Source: Acidobacteriota bacterium
GTDB lineage: Bacteria > Acidobacteriota > Vicinamibacteria > Fen-336
Direction: 5' to 3'
Length of the DNA stretch: 64,000 bases
Assembly: GCA_011526565.1 (NCBI GenBank)
Contig: WYBL01000086.1
Coordinates: 22,219 to 86,218, forward strand
In this document: positions 149-45,057 of the stretch, piece by piece
Numbering within the stretch: the first letter of the stretch is position 1
How the letters are laid out: each line of letters begins with the position of its first letter
Program-made: the position numbers and the translations under genes
The notes under the pieces: generated by a model
Seen by the model: the letters and a program-made list of their open reading frames with translations, nothing else
Told to the model about the DNA's origin: nothing
Databases searched by the model: none

Positions 149-1906
149 CTACTTCTTCTCCCCCGAAGGCTCGAGCGCCTTCAGCCGCTCTTCGGTCTTC
201 GCGATCACGTACTCGAGCCCCGGCTTGATCTCCGCCGGCACCTGCGCCGCCATCGCCTGCATCCGGGCCAGCCCCTCCTGCAGCTTCGCGGGGTCGGTTT
301 CGGCTTCGATGCGGGCCAGGCTCTGCTTGACCATCGCCTTCGCCTGCGGCGGCAGGGCCGCCAGTGCCGGGTCTTCCGGGGCGGTCCCCTCCTTGCGCAG
401 GAACACCGCCACCGTGCGCTTCTCCGGCACCAGGTACTCGCGCGCGACGCGCTGGATGTCTTCCGCGGTGACCGCCTCCCAGGCGTCGGCCGAGGTGTTG
501 ATGTAGCGCCAGTCGCCGAGCCCCTCGTAGACGAGGAGCTGGATCGCGATGAAGAAGGGCGACGACAGCCGGCGGTAGGCGCCGGCCTTGGCCTGGTTCT
601 TCACCTTCTGCAGCTCCTCGGCCGCCACCGGCTCCTTCTGCAGCCGCTCGATCTCCTCGCCGAGCGCCTTCTCGACCGCGGCCGGGTCCTGGCCGTCCTT
701 GACCACGGCCTCGACCTGCACGAGTCCCGCGTGCTTCTTGAAGTCGGAGCTGGCGCGCGCCTCGTTGGCCAGCTTGCGGCCCTCGACGAGGCCCTTGTAG
801 AGCCGCCCGGTGCGGCCCGAGAACACGTCGGTCAGCAGGTCGAGCGCCGCGGCGTCGCGGTGCACGAACGGCACGCCGTGGAAGAGCAGGCGCACGGTCG
901 GCGAGGTCTCGGCGCTGGCCTGGTAGCGCTTCTCGCCGAGCTGCTTCGGCTCCAGCGTGACCACCGGCGGCGGCGCGACGGTGCCGCGGGCGAGGCGGCC
1001 GAAGTAGCGCTCGATCAGCGCCTTCGCCGCCGCCGGCTGGAAGTCGCCGACCAGCACGCCGGTCAGGTTGTTGGGCGCGTACCAGGTGGCGAAGTAGTCC
1101 TTCGCCTGCGCCAGCGTGTACTCGGGGATGTCCGAAGCCCAGCCGACCACCGGCCACTTGTACGGGTGCGCCTCCCAGAAGACCGAGTTGAGCGCCTCCT
1201 CGTACTTGCCGAGCGGGGTCGACTCGGTGCGCAGCCGGCGCTCCTCGAAGACGACGTCGCGCTCGGAATAGAACTCGCGGAACACCGGCTCGGCCAGGCG
1301 GTCGGACTCGAGCCACGCCCACAGCTCCAGCTTGTTCTTGGGGACGCGCACGAAGTAGATCGTCCAGTCCTCGCTGGTCGAGGCGTTGAGGCCCTCGCCG
1401 CCGTGCTTCGTGTACAGCTCGTCCATCGGGTCCTTCAGGATCAGCGCGCGCTGCTCCTGGACCAGCGCGTCGAAGCGCGCCTCGAGCTCCTTGTAGCGCG
1501 GGCTGCGGCTCTCCGGCGCAGCGAGGTCCGCGATCTCGCCGCGGCGCAGCCGCTCGCGCATCGCCTCGCGCTCGGCGCGCATCTCCGCCTGCACCTTTTC
1601 CTGCTCCTCGATCAGCTCGAGGTCGCGCGCGAGGTCCTTCGTGCCCAGCGTGCGGGTGCCCTTGAACATCATGTGCTCGAAGAAGTGGGAGATGCCGGTG
1701 ATGCCCGGCCGCTCGTTGACGGAGCCGACGCGGGCGACCCAGCCGGCGGCCACCGTCGGCGCGTCGGCGCGCGGGAACAGCAGCCACTTCATCCCGTTGT
1801 CGAGGGTGACCTCCTCGACCGCGATCTCGGGCTTGCCGGCGGCAGCGCCGGCGGGGAGGGCCGTGACGGCCAGGAGTGCGGCGAGGGCGGCGAATCGAAC
1901 GCGCAT
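149..1906 (-). CDS. M16 (insulinase/pitrilysin) family zinc peptidase, secreted
   Basis: 585-aa ORF, N-terminal signal peptide, inverted zinc motif HFFEHMMFKGT (HxxEH). Confidence 0.9.
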   Translation of the reverse strand: MRVRFAALAALLAVTALPAGAAAGKPEIAVEEVTLDNGMKWLLFPRADAPTVAAGWVARVGSVNERPGITGISHFFEHMMFKGTRTLGTKDLARDLELIEEQEKVQAEMRAEREAMRERLRRGEIADLAAPESRSPRYKELEARFDALVQEQRALILKDPMDELYTKHGGEGLNASTSEDWTIYFVRVPKNKLELWAWLESDRLAEPVFREFYSERDVVFEERRLRTESTPLGKYEEALNSVFWEAHPYKWPVVGWASDIPEYTLAQAKDYFATWYAPNNLTGVLVGDFQPAAAKALIERYFGRLARGTVAPPPVVTLEPKQLGEKRYQASAETSPTVRLLFHGVPFVHRDAAALDLLTDVFSGRTGRLYKGLVEGRKLANEARASSDFKKHAGLVQVEAVVKDGQDPAAVEKALGEEIERLQKEPVAAEELQKVKNQAKAGAYRRLSSPFFIAIQLLVYEGLGDWRYINTSADAWEAVTAEDIQRVAREYLVPEKRTVAVFLRKEGTAPEDPALAALPPQAKAMVKQSLARIEAETDPAKLQEGLARMQAMAAQVPAEIKPGLEYVIAKTEERLKALEPSGEKK

Positions 1907-1921
1907 GCGCGGTCCTTTCGG

Positions 1922-2680
1922 CTAGGAGTGGCCGACTCCCGTGGCCATTTCCAGGAGCAGCTTGGCGACGACGTAGAGCAGCACTCCCGCGAAGGGCATG
2001 AAGGAGAGGCCGTGGCCCCGGGTGTGGTTCACCTCGGGGATCAGGTCGGAGGCGGCGACGTAGAGGGTGACGCCGGTCGACAGCGGCAGCGCCCACACGA
2101 CGGCGTTGGGGAACCCGTTGAGGCCCAGGGCGCCCAGCATCGTGGCGGCGGCGAGCAGCCCGGCGCCGAGCAGCGCCAGCTTCGGGCCCTTGCCGGAGGC
2201 GAGAGCGATGGAGGCGACGGTGAAGCCCTCCGGGATTTTGTGCAGCGCGACGGCGAGGAAGATGAGCACGCCGAGCGGCACCGACACCAGCAGGCCCGAC
2301 GCGATCGAGACGCCGTCGAAGAAGGTGTGGATCGACAGGCCGACGAGCGCCGAGAAGCTGGCCGCCGGGTCCAGCATCGCCTCGTGGTGTGTTTCTTCGC
2401 CGAAGTGGAAGTGCGGGGCCAGGATGTGTTCGGCGAAATGCACGATGAAGTAGCCGACCAGGATCAGCTCGGGCGCGTGCGGGTTCAGCTCCAGCGAGTG
2501 CGGCAGCATCTCGACGATCGCGGCGGCCAGCATGAAGCCGGCGCCGAGACCGATGAAATGCTTGAGGACCCGGTCGTTCCAGTGCTTGCGCCACACCACG
2601 ACCAGGCCCCCGAAGAGGTTGGCCGCGGCGGCGGCGCCGCCGAGCAGCAGGCTCCATTCGAAGGGGGACAAGGTGGGCAT
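1922..2680 (-). CDS. ZIP family metal (zinc) transporter, ZupT-like
   Basis: 252 aa, multi-TM, His-rich HFAEHILAPHFHFGEETHHE loop and conserved ZIP helices (HKIPEGF); 15 bp upstream of the M16 gene on the same strand. Confidence 0.88.
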   Translation of the reverse strand: MPTLSPFEWSLLLGGAAAAANLFGGLVVVWRKHWNDRVLKHFIGLGAGFMLAAAIVEMLPHSLELNPHAPELILVGYFIVHFAEHILAPHFHFGEETHHEAMLDPAASFSALVGLSIHTFFDGVSIASGLLVSVPLGVLIFLAVALHKIPEGFTVASIALASGKGPKLALLGAGLLAAATMLGALGLNGFPNAVVWALPLSTGVTLYVAASDLIPEVNHTRGHGLSFMPFAGVLLYVVAKLLLEMATGVGHS

Positions 2681-2715
2681 CCGCGCGAGCGACTGACGCT
2701 ATCACGAACCGCGCG

Positions 2716-3297
2716 GTGCGGCCCGCGACCGGGCGGGCGGTTTCGCGCGAGGCGGCACCCCGGTCTACGCTCGCGCCCGTGCCGAGTTCCGAGGCCCAGG
2801 TCCTGCTGTGGATTCACGAGTGGCGCACGCCCTGGCTCGACGCGATCTTCGTCGCCTCCCACTTCGCCGGCCGCACGCCCGTGCAGTTGGGGGTGACCGG
2901 CCTGCTGCTCGCCTGGTTCGCGGCCCGCCGCGAGTGGTCGCGCGCCGGGGTGGTCGCCCTCCTCGGCTGGCTCGCGTTCCTGCTCGTCGACGGCGCCAAG
3001 GTGGCGATCGGCCGCCCGCGCCCGGAGCTGTGGCCGCGCCTCGTCGAGCAGGACGCCGCGTCGTTCCCGAGCGGCCACGCGGCGATCTCTGCGGCCCTCT
3101 ACACGCTGATCGCGGCGGAGATCGCCCGCCACCGCCCGCGCCACGCGCCCTGGCTCTACGCCCTGGCCGTCGCCGGCAGCCTGTGGCAGGGCCTGGGCCG
3201 CCTCTACCTCGGCGTCCACTGGCCGACGGACGTCCTCGCCGGCTGGGCGATCGGCGCCGCCCTCGCCTGGCTCGGCCTCCGCACCTGGCGCCGCTGA
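2716..3297 (+). CDS. PAP2-family phosphatase (phosphatidic acid phosphatase type 2 / undecaprenyl-PP phosphatase-like)
   Basis: PAP2 signature motifs KxxxxRPRP (KVAIGRPRP), PSGH and LGVHWPTD; membrane helices. Start uncertain (GTG 2716 or GTG 2779). Confidence 0.75.
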   Translation: MRPATGRAVSREAAPRSTLAPVPSSEAQVLLWIHEWRTPWLDAIFVASHFAGRTPVQLGVTGLLLAWFAARREWSRAGVVALLGWLAFLLVDGAKVAIGRPRPELWPRLVEQDAASFPSGHAAISAALYTLIAAEIARHRPRHAPWLYALAVAGSLWQGLGRLYLGVHWPTDVLAGWAIGAALAWLGLRTWRR

Positions 3298-3310
3298 GAC
3301 TGAGCGCGTT

Positions 3311-3511
3311 CTAGGGCTGGCGCCCCCGCTGCCCCGGCCCGCGGCGATCCCGAAGGGTGGCCTCCGCGTCGGCCAGGGCCTTGCGGACCATCTGCTGGGC
3401 CATGCGCTCGATCGGGTCGGCCGGTTCGGGCGGTGCCGGCGCCGCAGCCGCGAGTTCCCGGCGAAGCGCCTCGAGCGACCGGAACACCCGTGCCTTCGTT
3501 CGTTCGCTCAT
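3311..3511 (-). CDS. Small helical protein (66 aa), possible ribbon-helix-helix-like partner, translationally coupled to the upstream Ntn-hydrolase-like gene
   Basis: ATG at 3511 overlaps the stop of the upstream gene by 4 nt (ATGA); predicted beta-strand plus two helices (TKARVFRSLEALRREL ... PIERMAQQMVRKALADAEATLRDRR). Confidence 0.45.
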   Translation of the reverse strand: MSERTKARVFRSLEALRRELAAAAPAPPEPADPIERMAQQMVRKALADAEATLRDRRGPGQRGRQP

Positions 3512-5010
3512 TCCGAGTTCCCCTCGGCGACCGCACCCCCTCCGAAGTAGCGCTGCAGGAACTGGGGGTTGAGTTCGGCCTGGAAGTAGTGCTTTCGGCG
3601 CATCCAGATGAAGCCATCATGCTTGGAAATGACGGCCACGTCTATGGGGCCGCCCACCGTCTCCGGCCCGAGCGTGAAGCGGCGTTTCAGCGAAGTGAGC
3701 TGCACGAGCGCCTCCGCGAGCGCGGCCAGATCCTCCTTCCCGAGGTGCTGGACCGCCTCGATGACCGGGCCGATGCGAGCCTCGCGTCGGTGTTGATCCA
3801 TGGTGCGGTCGAGCGCGGCGAACATGCGCTCGCCGAGTGCCCGAACCTGGCCTCCAAGGTCCGCCACGGAACTCTCGCCGACCATCGCCTCGATCCGCCC
3901 CGGCAACTCCGTGACCAGAAGACGGCGCACCGTTTCCCGAAAGAGGTGCCGGGACTCCGGGTCCACTCCTTCCATGAACGTGGCCACCATGTCCCTCTGG
4001 GCGAAAGCCCGGACAGCAGCGCCCGCATCCAGGGTCAGGCGCGCAGGGGGCTCGCGGGCGATCTGTGGCCGCCCTTCGAGGCGCCCCCAGAGTCGGAGCG
4101 GGTGGAGCGCCGGCCGGTACTCGTCTCGACCGAAGCCCGCCACGACCAGCCCGGTGCTCGACGACAGCTCCTGGTCCTTCAGGCAGGAGAGCAGGCCCAG
4201 AGCCAGCGTCCGTTCCCGTTGCCCGGCGCTGATGCCGAGGTCCCCGAGCACGCGCTCGAAGGCCGTCTCCGCCAGCGGTCGCACCGAAGGATTCAACCGG
4301 GCCAGATCATCGGCCGCGAAACCGTCGAGGAACCCCTGGGCCGCCAGGTAGCTCTCACCCCGCTGGAGCACGTGGTCGAAGGCCACGGGGAGTTCGTCGA
4401 TCGACAGGCCAGAGGCTTCGATGGCCTGCCGGAGCTCCTGGGCCAGAGCGCGAAAGACGGCTTCCAGGGCGCTTGCGAGGAGCTGCGCTTCTTCCGACTC
4501 CGAGCAGAGCCTCTCGCCGGCGAGGAACTCGGCAAGAGCTTCGACGTATCCCTCGACCGTCGGGAAGGCCCGGGCCCCGAGCCGCACCCGGAACTGCTTG
4601 ATCACCGTCTCGGCCGGCAGTCCCGCGATCGAGGCGTTGCCGTAGACAATGATCCCGACCGGTTCGTGCTTCGAGAGCGCGAAGAGCTTGTTGACGGTGT
4701 TGTAGACCTTGCGCTGCGCGTCGGCGGGCGCCGTGATGGTCTCGATGGTGACCGCGCTGTCGGCGGCCAGAGCGACGGCTTGCGCGTTCAGGACGGCAAT
4801 CTCGGCAGTCAAGAACCCCTCCCCGCCGCGGGGAGGCGCGACCGGCCCCGATCCTCCGCCACCCGTCTGCCGCACCGGGACCGGCGCGGTATGCTCGGGT
4901 CGGCCTCGCAACTGTCGAGGCAGTTGTTGTTGCTGGGCCAGTCTCTTGGAGCAATCGGCACAGCCAAGCTCCTCACCGGTCACATGGACGGCCGCTTCCG
5001 GTACAACCAC
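3508..5010 (-). CDS. Divergent proteasome-beta/HslV-like Ntn-hydrolase-fold protein with large insertions (alternative TTG start at 4812 gives a 434-aa product beginning M-T-A-E-I-A-V)
   Basis: Motifs in order: TAEIAVLNAQAVALAADS (Thr1...Asp17-like), NKLFALSKHEPVGIIVYGNASIAG (Lys33-like and the GFAGxxADA-like strand), STGLVVAGFGRDEYRPALHPL, and C-terminal VGGPIDVAVISKHDGF (GGxIxVAVItkDG-like). TTG at 4812 is preceded by GGGGAGGGG; the ATG at 5010 would add a 66-aa low-complexity leader. Confidence 0.6.
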   Translation of the reverse strand: MVVPEAAVHVTGEELGCADCSKRLAQQQQLPRQLRGRPEHTAPVPVRQTGGGGSGPVAPPRGGEGFLTAEIAVLNAQAVALAADSAVTIETITAPADAQRKVYNTVNKLFALSKHEPVGIIVYGNASIAGLPAETVIKQFRVRLGARAFPTVEGYVEALAEFLAGERLCSESEEAQLLASALEAVFRALAQELRQAIEASGLSIDELPVAFDHVLQRGESYLAAQGFLDGFAADDLARLNPSVRPLAETAFERVLGDLGISAGQRERTLALGLLSCLKDQELSSSTGLVVAGFGRDEYRPALHPLRLWGRLEGRPQIAREPPARLTLDAGAAVRAFAQRDMVATFMEGVDPESRHLFRETVRRLLVTELPGRIEAMVGESSVADLGGQVRALGERMFAALDRTMDQHRREARIGPVIEAVQHLGKEDLAALAEALVQLTSLKRRFTLGPETVGGPIDVAVISKHDGFIWMRRKHYFQAELNPQFLQRYFGGGAVAEGNSE

Positions 5011-5284
5011 GTGGCTCCCGCAGGCATGCTCGGACTGGATACCGTGAATCAGCTCGACCCTCCGCGGCCTGGGAGAGGCCCTTGCCCGCGAAGCACTGCA
5101 GGAAGTCCACAGTGTTTTCCTCTCCGGTGAGCGCGAACCACTCGTGCCGTTCCATGGTCACCGGCCCTGAGCCAGCTTCCGCCACAGCCCCGTCGTCGTC
5201 TGGATCACCCGCACCAAGGTCTGGCGCGCCTCGATGGCCCGGTTCAAAGGCACCTCGCCATGAGCACCGGGAACGGTACGACCG

Positions 5285-5661
5285 CAGCGGTTCGTTGCCG
5301 TGGCCGTTTCGAGCTGTCGCTCCGCCGCCCACCGCGGAGCGCCGTGTCGAACCCTCGCGCCGGTAGGCGAAGCCCACGGCGCGCCACGTCGAGCTGGCGC
5401 TCCGTCACCCGAGCCGGCGGAGCGTCGGGTCGAACCCATCTGCGGAGCGTCGAGCTGATCTGCGAGGTGTCGATGCCGGCGAAGGGCACGGCCACGGTTC
5501 GACGCTGGTCTTAGCCCGCGTCAGCGGTGGCTCGACCCGGCGCACCGCCGGCCCAGGCGACGGTGCGTTCGTTCGACCCGGCGCGCGGCCGGCGCGGTCT
5601 CCCGCGCGCGGTTCGACTCGACACACCGCCGGAGTCCCGACGGTGTGCAGCTCGAGAACGG
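5285..5661 (+). repeat. Copy A of an about 350-bp GTCGAAC/GTTCGAC-rich repetitive element, directly abutting the 3' end of the Fic gene
   Basis: Near-identical over more than 240 bp to 6950-7190 (e.g. gggtcgaac..tctgcggagcgtcgagc..ggccacggttcgacgctgg..gtgcgttcgttcgacc..gcgcggttcga..cgagaacggc); multiple inverted heptamers. Confidence 0.8.
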
Positions 5662-6783
5662 CTAACCGGCCGCCGCGAACGGGTCGCCGACCAGCTTCTT
5701 TTCCGCGTATCGCTGTGCGAGTTCCCGCAACCCATCGGCAGCCACGTAGTGGCGCCCGCGCTTGTCGCCCACCGGCTGGAGATATCCCGCCTTCACGAGC
5801 GCGCGCAGGTCACGGCCCGCGGTGGCCTCGGTCACGTCAGCCGCGTTCCTGTACGTGGGATTCCGCACTCGGTAACCGATCGCAGCATCCGCGAGAGCCA
5901 GGACGCAACGATTCGGAAGGCCGCTCTGCTCGATGCGGCGCTCGAGTTCGTTGCAGATGTTTTCCATGGTGCGCTGCCGCCGCAGCAGGGTGTGCACCTG
6001 TCGATAGTGAGCCGTCAGGCAGAAACGGATCCACGGCCTGGCACTGTTCCCGGGGTTCCACGACCCCTGGCCGACTTCTGCCAACACACGGTAGTAGGCC
6101 TCGGTGTTTCGGCCCAGATATTCCTCGATGCTCGAGAAGACGGGCGGGATGTTCCCGCTTCGGGCCAGCACGAGCGTCTGAAGGCACCGGCCCATGCGCC
6201 CATTTCCGTCCGAGAACGGGTGGATCATCACGAGGTTCAGGTGAGCCATCGCGGCATCGACGAACGGTGAGTCCCCCGGCTCGGCCAGCGCGACCAACAG
6301 GGCCGAGATCAGGCTCGGGACAAGTTCGACAGGAGGGCCCTCGTAGACGCGCTCGCCGGTGCCGGACCTCTGCACGAAGATCGGCCCCGGGCGCCAGCGC
6401 CCGGGGTTCTTCGCCAGGTCATGGCCCGTCATCATGAAGTGGAGCGACTTCAGCAGCTCAGCCGAGTACTCGAAGTGGGCGTCGTCGGCCTTCTGAAGGA
6501 CCAGCGTCATCGCCTGGCGATACCCCGTGACCGCGGCCCAGGCTTCGTCCTTGGGCTCGAGCGGCTCCTCGCCCTCGACGGCCGCGACGGCATCGTCGAT
6601 CGTCACGTTGTAGCCTTCGATCGAGTTCGACCCCTGAACGGCTCGGGCAAAGGTGTTTCGCCTGAGCAGACCGCTCCAGCGCCGCGGCTGACTCAACGCG
6701 TACCGCAACTGGCTCCTGGCCTTGTCGATTTCGCCGATCACGGCCTGCTCGGCCTGGTCGGTCGGGGGTGCCTTGAAGATCAT
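5662..6783 (-). CDS. Fic family protein (class II Fic AMPylase with C-terminal winged-helix domain)
   Basis: Canonical Fic motif HPFSDGNGRMGR; N-terminal inhibitory motif SNSIEG ((S/T)xxxE(G/N)); 373 aa; C-terminal wHTH-like region. Confidence 0.9.
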   Translation of the reverse strand: MIFKAPPTDQAEQAVIGEIDKARSQLRYALSQPRRWSGLLRRNTFARAVQGSNSIEGYNVTIDDAVAAVEGEEPLEPKDEAWAAVTGYRQAMTLVLQKADDAHFEYSAELLKSLHFMMTGHDLAKNPGRWRPGPIFVQRSGTGERVYEGPPVELVPSLISALLVALAEPGDSPFVDAAMAHLNLVMIHPFSDGNGRMGRCLQTLVLARSGNIPPVFSSIEEYLGRNTEAYYRVLAEVGQGSWNPGNSARPWIRFCLTAHYRQVHTLLRRQRTMENICNELERRIEQSGLPNRCVLALADAAIGYRVRNPTYRNAADVTEATAGRDLRALVKAGYLQPVGDKRGRHYVAADGLRELAQRYAEKKLVGDPFAAAG

Positions 6784-6852
6784 GTCGGTTTGTCGGTTAC
6801 TTCATGCCCACGTGTCGGATAATAACAGGCATTCTGGACGACATTAACCGCG
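6784..6852 (-). promoter_or_regulatory. AT-rich putative promoter region of the Fic gene
   Basis: Local drop in GC (cggataataacaggcattctggacgacattaacc) immediately upstream of the Fic ATG; on the coding strand TTAATG-17nt-TATTAT lies about 45 nt upstream of the ATG. Confidence 0.3.
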
Positions 6853-6854
6853 AA

Positions 6855-7195
6855 TCGCGGACGTTGCCTTCGTTTCGAACCAGCGCTCCGCCGGCTGCCG
6901 GCGGAGCGTCGTGTCGAACCATCGCGCCACTCGGCGCAGCTCGTGGCGCGCCGGGTCGAACTCGTCTGCGGAGCGTCGAGCCGTCCTGCGGGGCGTCGAA
7001 GCCGGCGAACGACGCGGCCACGGTTCGACGCTGGTTGCGGCCCGGGTCAGTTGCAGCTCGACTCGGCGCACCGCTGGTTCCCGACGGTGCGTTCGTTCGA
7101 CCTGGGCGCGCGGCCGGCTACGGACACCCGCGCGCGGTTCGAGTCGGCACACCGTCGGGGTTGCAGCGGTGTGAAGGTTCGAGAACGGCCGCGTT
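6855..7195 (+). repeat. Copy B of the GTCGAAC/GTTCGAC-rich repetitive element (direct repeat of copy A)
   Basis: Same orientation and near-identical core as 5285-5661, ending ...ggttcgagaacggcc 22 bp before the FeS-gene start. Confidence 0.8.
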
Positions 7196-7216
7196 TGCTA
7201 GAGTACGCGCACCTTC

Positions 7217-11670: not shown

Positions 11671-11937
11671 ATGGGGACCGTGAAGACGACGATCGAGCTG
11701 CCGGACGCCCTGTTCCGGAGTGCCAAGGCCCGGGCCGCCGAGCGGGGCCAGCCGCTCAAGCAGTTCGTCACCGAGGCCCTCCAGGAGAAGCTCGCCGGGA
11801 GACCTCGCCGCAGTGCAGACGAACCCGCGTGGATGCGTGGCTTCGGGGGCCTGAAGGACCTGCGCGCGGAGACCCGGCGGGTGCAGCGCCGGATCGACGC
11901 CGCATTCGAGGAGATCGAACCCGAGGACCGGGCGTGA
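11671..11937 (+). CDS. vapB: Type II antitoxin (VapB-like) of a VapBC module
   Basis: 88-aa ORF, stop overlaps the PIN-gene GTG start (GTGA at 11934-11937). Confidence 0.65.
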   Translation: MGTVKTTIELPDALFRSAKARAAERGQPLKQFVTEALQEKLAGRPRRSADEPAWMRGFGGLKDLRAETRRVQRRIDAAFEEIEPEDRA

Positions 11938-12326
11938 TCCTCGACACGAACGCGCTCTCGGCCTTCGTCGACGGGTCCCCGGCCATCGGCGACGTGGTCC
12001 GCGGACAGCGGCGCCTCGCCCTCCCGGTTGTCGTGATCGGCGAGTTCCGCTACGGCATCGCGATGTCGCGGCACCGCGCAGCCTACGAGCGCTGGCTCGA
12101 CGAGCACGCGCGCGATTTCGAGATCCTGGACGTGACCGAGGCGACCGCCGCCGTGTACGCAGCGCTTCGAGTCGAGCTGAAGCGGCGGGGGCGGCCGATT
12201 CCGGCGATCGACGCCTGGATCGCCGCGCTCGCACTCGAGCACGGCCTGCCCGTGCTCTCCCGCGACGCACACTTCGACGTGGTGGCCGGTCTCCACCGCG
12301 TCGACTGGTCGGTCTCCGCGGGCTGA
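11934..12326 (+). CDS. vapC: PIN-domain toxin VapC
   Basis: VILDTNALSAF N-terminus (Asp of the PIN active site), about 130 aa; longer ORF from 11829 is a GC-rich upstream extension. Confidence 0.8.
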   Translation: MILDTNALSAFVDGSPAIGDVVRGQRRLALPVVVIGEFRYGIAMSRHRAAYERWLDEHARDFEILDVTEATAAVYAALRVELKRRGRPIPAIDAWIAALALEHGLPVLSRDAHFDVVAGLHRVDWSVSAG

Positions 12327-36497: not shown

Positions 36498-36584
36498 GGA
36501 GGGCTAGCCTAACGGTAAGGCAGGAGCCTTGAAAGCTCCCGGGCCGCAAGGCCCTTGGGGGTTCGAATCCCTCGCCCTCCGCCA
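36498..36584 (+). tRNA. tRNA-Ser (anticodon UGA), 87 nt with long variable arm and encoded CCA
   Basis: Acceptor GGAGGGC/GCCCTCC, D-stem GCCT/AGGC, anticodon stem GGAGC/GCTCC with loop CTTGAAA, variable arm GGGCC-GCAA-GGCCC, T-loop TTCGAAT, discriminator G, CCA. Confidence 0.9.
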
Positions 36585-44700: not shown

Positions 44701-45057
44701 GAAGGGGAGCGTACCGCCAGAACCCGACCGGCGCAGCCCGGCCGCCCGTGCGCGGTCGGGTACCGCGGCGCACCGCCCCGACTGCGGAGCGGCGAGTGCC
44801 GCGCTCCGTTGCCCCGACCGTGCGCCGGTCGCTTGCCGTGGCGCATCGCCCCGACCGGCGATAGCCCGCCCCGTCCGTTCCAGTCGCGCCGTTTCGCTTC
44901 GACGTCGGCTCACGGTTCGACCCGGCGCTCCGCTGCTCAACCCGGCGGAGCGTTCGTTCGACGTCAGCGCGCGGCGGTACCCGGCCGCGCGCGGTTCGAC
45001 TGGGCGCTCCGACTGCAAACGCCGGAGCGACGGTTCGAAAACGGGCGTGAGGGTGGG
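44701..45057 (+). repeat. Copy C (more diverged) of the GTCGAAC/GTTCGAC-rich repetitive element, intergenic
   Basis: Shares gcgttcgttcgac, gcgcggttcgac, cggttcgaaaacgg blocks with copies A/B; lies between two same-strand genes. Confidence 0.6.

Follow-up and report, generated by a model that had tools for sequence, protein, structure and literature searches.

A two-gene cassette in an Acidobacteriota contig

We analyzed a 64,000-nucleotide stretch of the genome of an Acidobacteriota bacterium (assembly GCA_011526565.1, contig WYBL01000086.1, positions 22,219 to 86,218), hereafter the window, on the minus strand of which a gene for a proteasome-beta-like N-terminal nucleophile (Ntn) hydrolase overlaps a gene for a 66-residue protein, here termed the partner. 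Together the two genes form a compact cassette, of whose identity and anatomy we are highly confident. Its features, in window coordinates, are as follows.

3508..4812, minus strand: gene for a proteasome-beta-like Ntn (Thr) hydrolase, very probably of the PMI-4 type discussed below; TTG start, 434 residues, product beginning M-T-A-E-I
3311..3511, minus strand: gene for the partner protein, 66 residues; based on the list of open reading frames (ORFs), a partner hidden Markov model (HMM), alignments, an AlphaFold2 (AF2) model and the GC content at third codon positions (GC3)
3508..3511, minus strand: ATGA start/stop overlap of the enzyme and partner genes, from direct reading of the sequence
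4816..4824, minus strand: Shine-Dalgarno-like GGGGAGGGG, with its GGAGG core 5 nucleotides from the TTG start, also from direct reading
4813..5010, minus strand: in-frame upstream extension of the long ORF, non-coding, 5' leader or promoter region; based on GC3, the end of homology and the N-termini of homologs

The ATGA overlap (3508-3511) had been pointed out in an earlier note on this DNA, made from the sequence alone, and was confirmed here; it implies that the enzyme and its partner are probably translationally coupled. A promoter and terminator scan and an Rfam search yielded nothing informative at the cassette locus.

The enzyme has a proteasome-like fold and a conserved Ntn active site

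The earlier note had read the enzyme as a divergent proteasome-like Ntn hydrolase from a series of short motifs, and the AF2 model, with a predicted local distance difference test (pLDDT) of 88.6 and a predicted template modeling score (pTM) of 0.86, bears this out. The enzyme is predicted to adopt an alpha-beta-beta-alpha Ntn sandwich that is superposable on proteasome beta subunits, and the top Foldseek matches of the model in the PDB are all proteasome subunits or Anbu. The scores obtained in the structural comparison were the following.

Proteasome beta subunits (174 residues, 2.7 Å): 16.6
Anbu: 15.4
Proteasome alpha subunits: 13-14.8
HslV: 12.5
BPH: 12.1
Connectase: 10.5
Other Ntn hydrolases: below 10

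Conservation was counted in a family alignment of 104 sequences, 102 of them with complete N-termini, and residues were numbered from Met1, such that the nucleophile Thr1 of the proteasome is Thr2 of the enzyme. Threonine occupies position 2 in all 102 complete N-termini, and D18 and K42 are kept in 104/104 sequences, at 35-40% identity. Invariant along with Thr2, Asp18, Ser19 and Lys42 are the AGFG, PFAQ and ETVGGPIDVAVISKGDG motifs, and the most conserved columns of the family are N9, D18, S19, K42, G221, G226, G228, A271, Q272, E384-G388, D391, D399 and G400. The motifs quoted in the earlier note are thus present, in the right order and among the most conserved columns, and the proposed equivalents of Thr1, Asp17 and Lys33 proved to be invariant and in register. 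The spacing between Asp and Lys ranges from 16 to 24 residues, with a mode of 19, that is, the proteasome value plus three, and in the shortest members it is 16, the same as from D17 to K33 in the proteasome. In addition, G53 and G58, each found in 101/104 sequences in the strand after the lysine, are predicted candidates for the Gly47 oxyanion position.

Alignment with the beta subunit of T. acidophilum gave a consistent register at both ends of the protein. First, the N-terminal profile of the family (61 columns) aligns T1 with T1, D17 with E17, and K-L-F with K33-L34-F35, with a score exceeding those of 500/500 shuffles. The reference sequence used for this comparison agrees with the PDB beta match of the family profile. 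Second, beta residues 168-187 align with the C-terminal motif, at which the family profile also gave a weak beta-subunit match in the PDB, with an E of about 0.1. Aligning the family profile to a single beta sequence with hhalign likewise recovered the C-terminal motif alone; BLASTP of the N-terminal 69 residues against the beta subunit gave no match, and single-sequence phmmer of the protein against the PDB gave noise only. A further hhalign match, of VVAGFG to HslV, was discarded as being in the wrong register and having a probability of 1%.

Among phage protein families, residues 67-488 of the long ORF match phrog_5990 of PHROGs (E = 2e-93), a family without an assigned function, and a BFVD search returned only a generic phage 'proteasome beta' match. 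One public record of a family member (CAN1555282.1; P0081, Fimbriimonadaceae, L011) carries the name 'Endolysin/autolysin', which has no fold or motif support and looks like an annotation error.

Translation starts at TTG 4812

The long ORF that the earlier note had described as a gene of 500 codons does exist on the minus strand (3508..5010), but its first codon is GTG, rather than the ATG reported at 5010, and the gene product is 434 residues long from an in-frame TTG at 4812. This TTG, which the earlier note had also considered, together with a Met-Thr start, is the true start codon, as established by four independent lines of evidence. First, in near-identical metagenome contigs the gene is called as a pair of 434 and 66 residues. 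Second, all retrieved homologs, including the orthologs whose start the earlier note had proposed to check, begin with M-T-A-E-[IV]; exactly one residue, Met or Val, stands ahead of the threonine in 100/104 aligned homologs, and an N-terminal extension of this kind occurs in none of those compared. Third, the GC3 of the 66-codon extension is 0.68 versus 0.84 for the gene, in which the lowest 66-codon window reaches 0.77. Fourth, DNA homology with the 97%-identical contigs L001 and L002 spans window positions 1688-4899 only, and so ends 87 nucleotides upstream of the TTG.

Because of its low GC3, the end of homology at 4899 and the single residue before the threonine in the homologs, the extension is considered non-coding, and the Gln/Arg/Gly/Pro-rich 'propeptide' offered as an alternative in the earlier note is an open-frame artifact of a 71%-GC genome. 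That the true product has 500 residues from GTG 5010, with a 66-residue propeptide removed autocatalytically before the threonine as in 20S beta subunits, is hardly credible: the reading frame is indeed open back to 5010 and canonical beta subunits do autoprocess, but the composition of the extension, the homology end, the homolog N-termini and the strong Shine-Dalgarno sequence ahead of the TTG all speak against it, and according to Fuchs, Alva and Lupas (Bioinformatics 2021; PMC8665760) propeptides are confined to beta subunits and HslV.

Two helical insertions point to the PMI-4 family

In the AF2 model, the core elements follow each other in proteasome order and are interrupted by two all-helical insertions. 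Insertion 1 (residues about 105-209; four helices, ~105 residues) comes directly after helices H1 (67-78) and H2 (86-99) and before the core strand at 220, whereas insertion 2 (residues about 285-355; two long helices, ~70 residues) lies between H3 (273-281) and H4 (359-379). The link between strands S3 and S4 is a short loop of low pLDDT, and no large insertion is found there. The earlier note had estimated the insertions at about 150 and 100 residues, both of which the model shortens. Matches of profile positions 84-161, within insertion 1, to the N-terminal helical repeats of cullin-3 and cullin-4B (E about 0.004-0.01) are probably helical-bundle noise; they are the sole hint on the fold of this insertion.

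This architecture had been thought to match no described proteasome homolog, a claim of novelty that is not upheld because the PMI proteins, which have insertions at exactly these two sites, were described in 2021. Fuchs, Alva and Lupas (Bioinformatics 2021; PMC8665760) reported 22 further proteasome-homolog families that lie beyond ordinary sequence detection, including the proteins called PMI, for 'Proteasome homolog with Multiple Insertions'. Among these, insertions between H3 and H4 occur in PMI-2 to PMI-6, and insertions between S3 and S4 only in PMI-5 and PMI-6. PMI-4, placed in their group II and represented by HDY66466.1 (KEGG OC.661505-661513), is by far the largest PMI group, with 501 sequences in nr90, and is spread over Proteobacteria, Firmicutes, Actinobacteria, Bacteroidetes, the Planctomycetes-Verrucomicrobia-Chlamydiae (PVC) group, Cyanobacteria, other bacteria, Euryarchaeota and phages. 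The same authors reported no conserved gene context for the new homologs, and considered that insertions at the pore loop and at H3/H4 may preclude barrel formation (PMC8665760).

The window enzyme shares with PMI-4 a proteasome-like core with Thr1/Asp17/Lys33 and the absence of a propeptide; two insertions, a long one following H1/H2 and another between H3 and H4, with none between S3 and S4; and, at the level of its family, the taxon spread, the abundance and the occurrence in phages. Based on these features, rather than on direct sequence comparison with HDY66466.1, which did not appear among the accessions of ten NCBI-sourced homologs, we assign the enzyme to PMI-4 as very probably correct. 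Whether or not this assignment holds, the architecture belongs to a described, experimentally uncharacterized kind. Searching the literature for subsequent studies of PMI-4, or of proteasome-like proteins in a defense or toxin-antitoxin (TA) setting, turned up nothing relevant.

A small partner gene accompanies almost every member of the family

Across 80 genome loci, a co-oriented ORF of about 52-77 codons starts at, or overlaps, the stop codon of almost every family gene, and in most of them the two genes either overlap as in the window or are separated by a gap of a few nucleotides. The earlier note had suggested checking co-occurrence with the small gene, and this turned out to be nearly universal: a co-oriented ORF of 50-85 residues at the stop codon was found for 75/77 family genes versus 43/376 control genes, the latter being the other genes of at least 200 residues in the same loci (Fisher p = 7e-52). 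The consensus of the small ORF is KKKKEKVYRSIEEFEKKFFPKSFEKRREEKNEDPEALGEELAEESLEKIREQL. Of 85 small ORFs, a partner HMM recognized 50 at E <= 1e-3 and 60 at E <= 0.05, a level reached by only 2/425 shuffles. The window partner aligns with the hallmark F-R-S-x-x-E...P, in which the conservation of Ser12 and Pro22 is 90% or higher.

The partner evolves fast, with a mean column identity of 21%, its termini are not conserved in the alignments, and its C-terminal helix is amphipathic. Its AF2 model (pLDDT 77; pTM 0.36) predicts helices at residues 3-23 and 33-56 without a fixed mutual orientation, in agreement with the two-helix protein of the earlier note, which is conserved, and this lack of a fixed orientation suggests that the partner may fold on binding. 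No meaningful match was found for it in Pfam, in NCBIfam or among PDB chains, and no recognizable DNA-binding fold was seen.

The association was also recovered in the opposite direction. Starting from partner homologs, a family gene of 432-436 residues was found directly upstream in 2/3 cases. The third case (L089:3930-4189 and L090:3930-4189) is a decayed cassette, in which ~70 nucleotides of the 3' end of the enzyme gene are left and the small gene, of 62 residues, is intact; it follows closely after a PIN toxin pair, and PemK and Mrr-nSTAND genes belong to the same island. Loss of the enzyme with retention of the partner is seen, and the enzyme without the partner essentially never is.

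The pair is widespread and travels on mobile elements

With 6,415 clusters at 50% identity the family is a large one, yet it has no Pfam, NCBIfam or defense-database model and is experimentally uncharacterized. Our genome scan placed bacterial loci in Nitrospirota, Bacillota, Planctomycetota, Verrucomicrobiota, Acidobacteriota, Cyanobacteria, Chloroflexota, Actinomycetota, Bacteroidota and Proteobacteria, and archaeal loci in Methanosarcinales, ANME-1, Methanobacteriota, Hydrothermarchaeota and other archaeal groups, bacterial and archaeal members being alike in their identity to the window enzyme (32-41%).

The pair is clearly mobile and autonomous, moving as a compact unit on mobile elements of several kinds. 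First, 13 phage or satellite records contain the family. In Providencia phage PSTRCR_117lys the pair (QQK88393.1, QQK88394.1) is flanked by Q/Dam and the holin, in a Porphyromonas phage it stands among morons, and in nine Streptococcus 'Javan' satellites and prophages it occupies the extreme end, always with an ORF of 55-58 residues; the phages carrying the pair at moron positions are temperate. Second, nine plasmids carry it, including E. faecium pA4694_P2 (WP_002302755.1, WP_002347084.1). Third, in Nostoc sp. FACHB-190 (JACJQW010000012.1; L086 1-4210) the pair is the first cargo after the TnsB (Mu-transpos_C), TniB and TniQ genes of a Tn7-like element, with the S subunit of a type I restriction-modification (R-M) system further downstream. 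Beyond the small ORF, the 80 loci have no recurrent neighbor in common, nor is any AAA+ partner conserved among them, the AAA+ family being absent from the common flanking Pfam matches. The near-universal, conserved partner gene and the mobility of the cassette appear not to have been described before.

The cassette differs in composition from its neighbors and adjoins a variable slot

The other features of the window that bear on the cassette are listed below.

5662-6783: SoFic-like Fic gene, bracketed by repeats
5305-5650 and 6871-7176: direct repeats of about 350 nucleotides, about 80% identical, with palindromic CGGCGGAGCG..GTCGAAC units
11671-12326, plus strand: VapB-like ORF of 88 residues overlapping a PIN-domain (VapC-like) ORF, with GC3 below that of the surrounding housekeeping genes
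36498-36581, plus strand: single tRNA gene, the only Rfam match in the window

The cassette has a composition unusual for its host genome, with GC3 values of 0.84 for the enzyme, 0.85 for the partner, 0.84 for Fic and 0.82-0.89 for VapBC, compared with 0.95-0.98 for the flanking M16 peptidase, ZIP, PAP2, Fe-S and molybdopterin genes. The pair at 3311-4812 on the minus strand is best read as a horizontally acquired two-gene cassette.

Next to the cassette, the Fic gene flanked by repeats that the earlier note had reported was confirmed. The CGGCGGAGCG..GTCGAAC unit occurs in seven copies in the window, where 0.02 would be expected, one of which is distant (44915-44935, at 44.9 kb), and the repeats may be repetitive extragenic palindromic (REP) or miniature inverted-repeat transposable element (MITE)-like elements marking a recombination hotspot. 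In the 97%-identical strains (L001:1-967, L002:1-926) the segment upstream of the cassette (4899-7200) is replaced by a divergent type I HsdR gene, with an HSDR_N and DEAD-box N-terminus, where the window has the Fic gene between its repeats; a stem-loop at 4903-4921 falls together with the breakpoint, at 4899. This upstream slot is a variable defense-gene position, occupied by SoFic here and by HsdR in those strains. Fic is a chance neighbor and not a part of the system, because no gene but the small ORF recurs in the 80 loci, and the functional link and conserved co-occurrence with Fic raised in the earlier note are accordingly dropped.

A protease-plus-inhibitor module as a tentative functional model

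HslV is controlled through HslU, and beta subunits are controlled through their propeptides and ring assembly. For the window enzyme we propose a different arrangement. Translated from the TTG, the enzyme would lose Met1 to methionine aminopeptidase (MetAP), as the specificity of MetAP suggests, and the exposed threonine nucleophile would work with the Asp at position 17 and the Lys equivalent to position 33. Since there is no propeptide, there would be no intrinsic delay of activation once MetAP exposes Thr1. The enzyme is probably not a self-compartmentalizing barrel, because its insertions sit at the sites of ring closing and ring stacking, namely, the ring pore (after H1/H2) and the ring-ring contact (H3/H4), and it may more likely be a substrate-specific peptidase or amidase to which access is governed by the helical domain. 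The fast-evolving, two-helix partner of ~60 residues would be made in step with the enzyme and would bind it as a dedicated regulator, most likely an inhibitor, keeping the propeptide-less protease silent until the partner is released or degraded. As carried by phages, satellites, plasmids and transposons, the pair could then serve as a selfish or accessory module of the TA, abortive-infection (Abi) or moron type.

We favor this mobile protease-plus-inhibitor module because it unites a coupled, fast-evolving and flexible mini-protein with mobility, yet we do so tentatively, as one possible functional model, and several observations weigh against it. With regard to the enzyme, neither PF00227 of Pfam nor the NCBIfam HslV/proteasome models, searches that had been proposed as a check of the fold, match it even at E <= 10, although the fold is confirmed by the model. 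The canonical Gly-Ser129-Gly (GSG) is replaced by Phe-Ala-Gln, and the profile alignment shows no obvious counterparts of the canonical beta residues Ser129, Asp166 and Ser169, which is why catalytic competence is presumed rather than proven. With regard to the partner, the window protein matches the partner HMM only marginally (E = 0.018), and at about a third of the loci, for instance in the Bacteroidota, Bacillus and phage versions, the small ORF has the same size and position and is too divergent to prove homology. Natural fusions of enzyme and partner were not found among longer homologs, which have low-complexity tails only. With regard to context, PADLOC models match neither protein, and the flanks of 73 loci consist mostly of housekeeping genes, with scattered R-M, MADS and HEC matches, so that enrichment in defense islands is not demonstrated.

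These ordinary, mostly metabolic flanks also fit a housekeeping role, in which the enzyme would be an ATP-independent quality-control peptidase, as proposed for Anbu and BPH, and the small protein a subunit with a role in structure, assembly or activation, like Ump1 or Bpa, without any function in conflict. No AAA+ partner or accessory gene is conserved, a point that Fuchs et al. made for the whole set of new homologs, and translational coupling would suit any stoichiometric complex. Such a role seems unlikely, however, given the sporadic spread across two domains of life with similar identity to bacteria and archaea, the presence of the pair on phages, satellites, plasmids and as Tn7-like cargo, a GC3 that is atypical with respect to the neighboring housekeeping genes, the swapping SoFic/HsdR slot next to the cassette, and a rate of partner evolution that is unusually fast for a core assembly factor.

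A connectase-like role, with the enzyme as a sequence-specific transpeptidase or processing enzyme and the small protein as its substrate, cut or ligated at the conserved S..E....[FY]FP to yield a mature peptide or a conjugatable tag, is decidedly improbable in our view: the lid insertion between S3 and S4, the defining feature of connectase, is missing from the family, the termini of the partner are not conserved, and the 80 loci have no conserved transporter, modification enzyme or target gene nearby. Even less can be said for a catalytically dead scaffold that retains the fold only, like proteasome alpha subunits, since Thr2, Asp18, Lys42 and the one-residue N-terminus are strictly kept in 104 sequences, which indicates selection on the Ntn active site, and beta subunits outscore alpha subunits in the structural comparison.

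One may further speculate that PMI-4 with its obligate ~60-residue partner constitutes an unrecognized class of mobile two-component conflict systems, held in check or triggered by the mini-protein, a proposal that is rather doubtful at this stage; a bolder variant would make the enzyme a transpeptidase of the connectase kind, by which the mini-protein is conjugated or processed. If the proposal is true, this would be the first conflict system with a proteasome-family threonine protease as its effector, serving prophages, satellites, plasmids and transposons in abortive infection, exclusion or addiction. In any case, the coupled mini-gene provides a functional clue that turns an orphan proteasome homolog into a testable two-component system, for which E. 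faecium pA4694_P2, Providencia phage PSTRCR_117lys and the Streptococcus Javan satellites offer tractable examples.

Comparison with known systems

Subunits of the 20S proteasome of the beta type (MEROPS T1; PF00227) have about 200 residues, compared with 434 here, and the window enzyme further differs from them in its two helical insertions at ring-forming surfaces, in lacking a propeptide, an alpha subunit or AAA+ partner nearby and a PF00227 match, and in having F-A-Q for GSG (Ser129). HslV differs in that no hslU or any other AAA+ gene adjoins the family in the 80 loci; the window enzyme is also 2.5 times larger, and its structure is nearer to beta subunits and Anbu. Anbu has about 230-250 residues, a C-terminal helix and a conserved operon with other genes, whereas the only conserved neighbor of the window family is the gene of ~60 codons. 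Connectase (archaeal MJ0548; PMC7980362) has a two-helix lid between S3 and S4 and lacks H1/H2, whereas the window enzyme has H1 and H2 and is without the lid; moreover, connectase is confined to methanogens and its substrate is MtrA, not a co-transcribed mini-protein. If the window enzyme turned out to be a protease or ligase that is regulated and specific, the range of functions of the proteasome fold would widen, as it did with connectase.

Type II TA systems and two-gene Abi cassettes differ from the pair in that the latter has no PADLOC match, no recognizable DNA-binding fold in the partner and most of its loci outside obvious defense islands. What the pair has in common with them is a compact, overlapping operon with a small, fast-evolving second protein, a patchy spread over bacteria, archaea, phages, satellites, plasmids and transposon cargo, and an orphan small gene that survives the loss of the enzyme.

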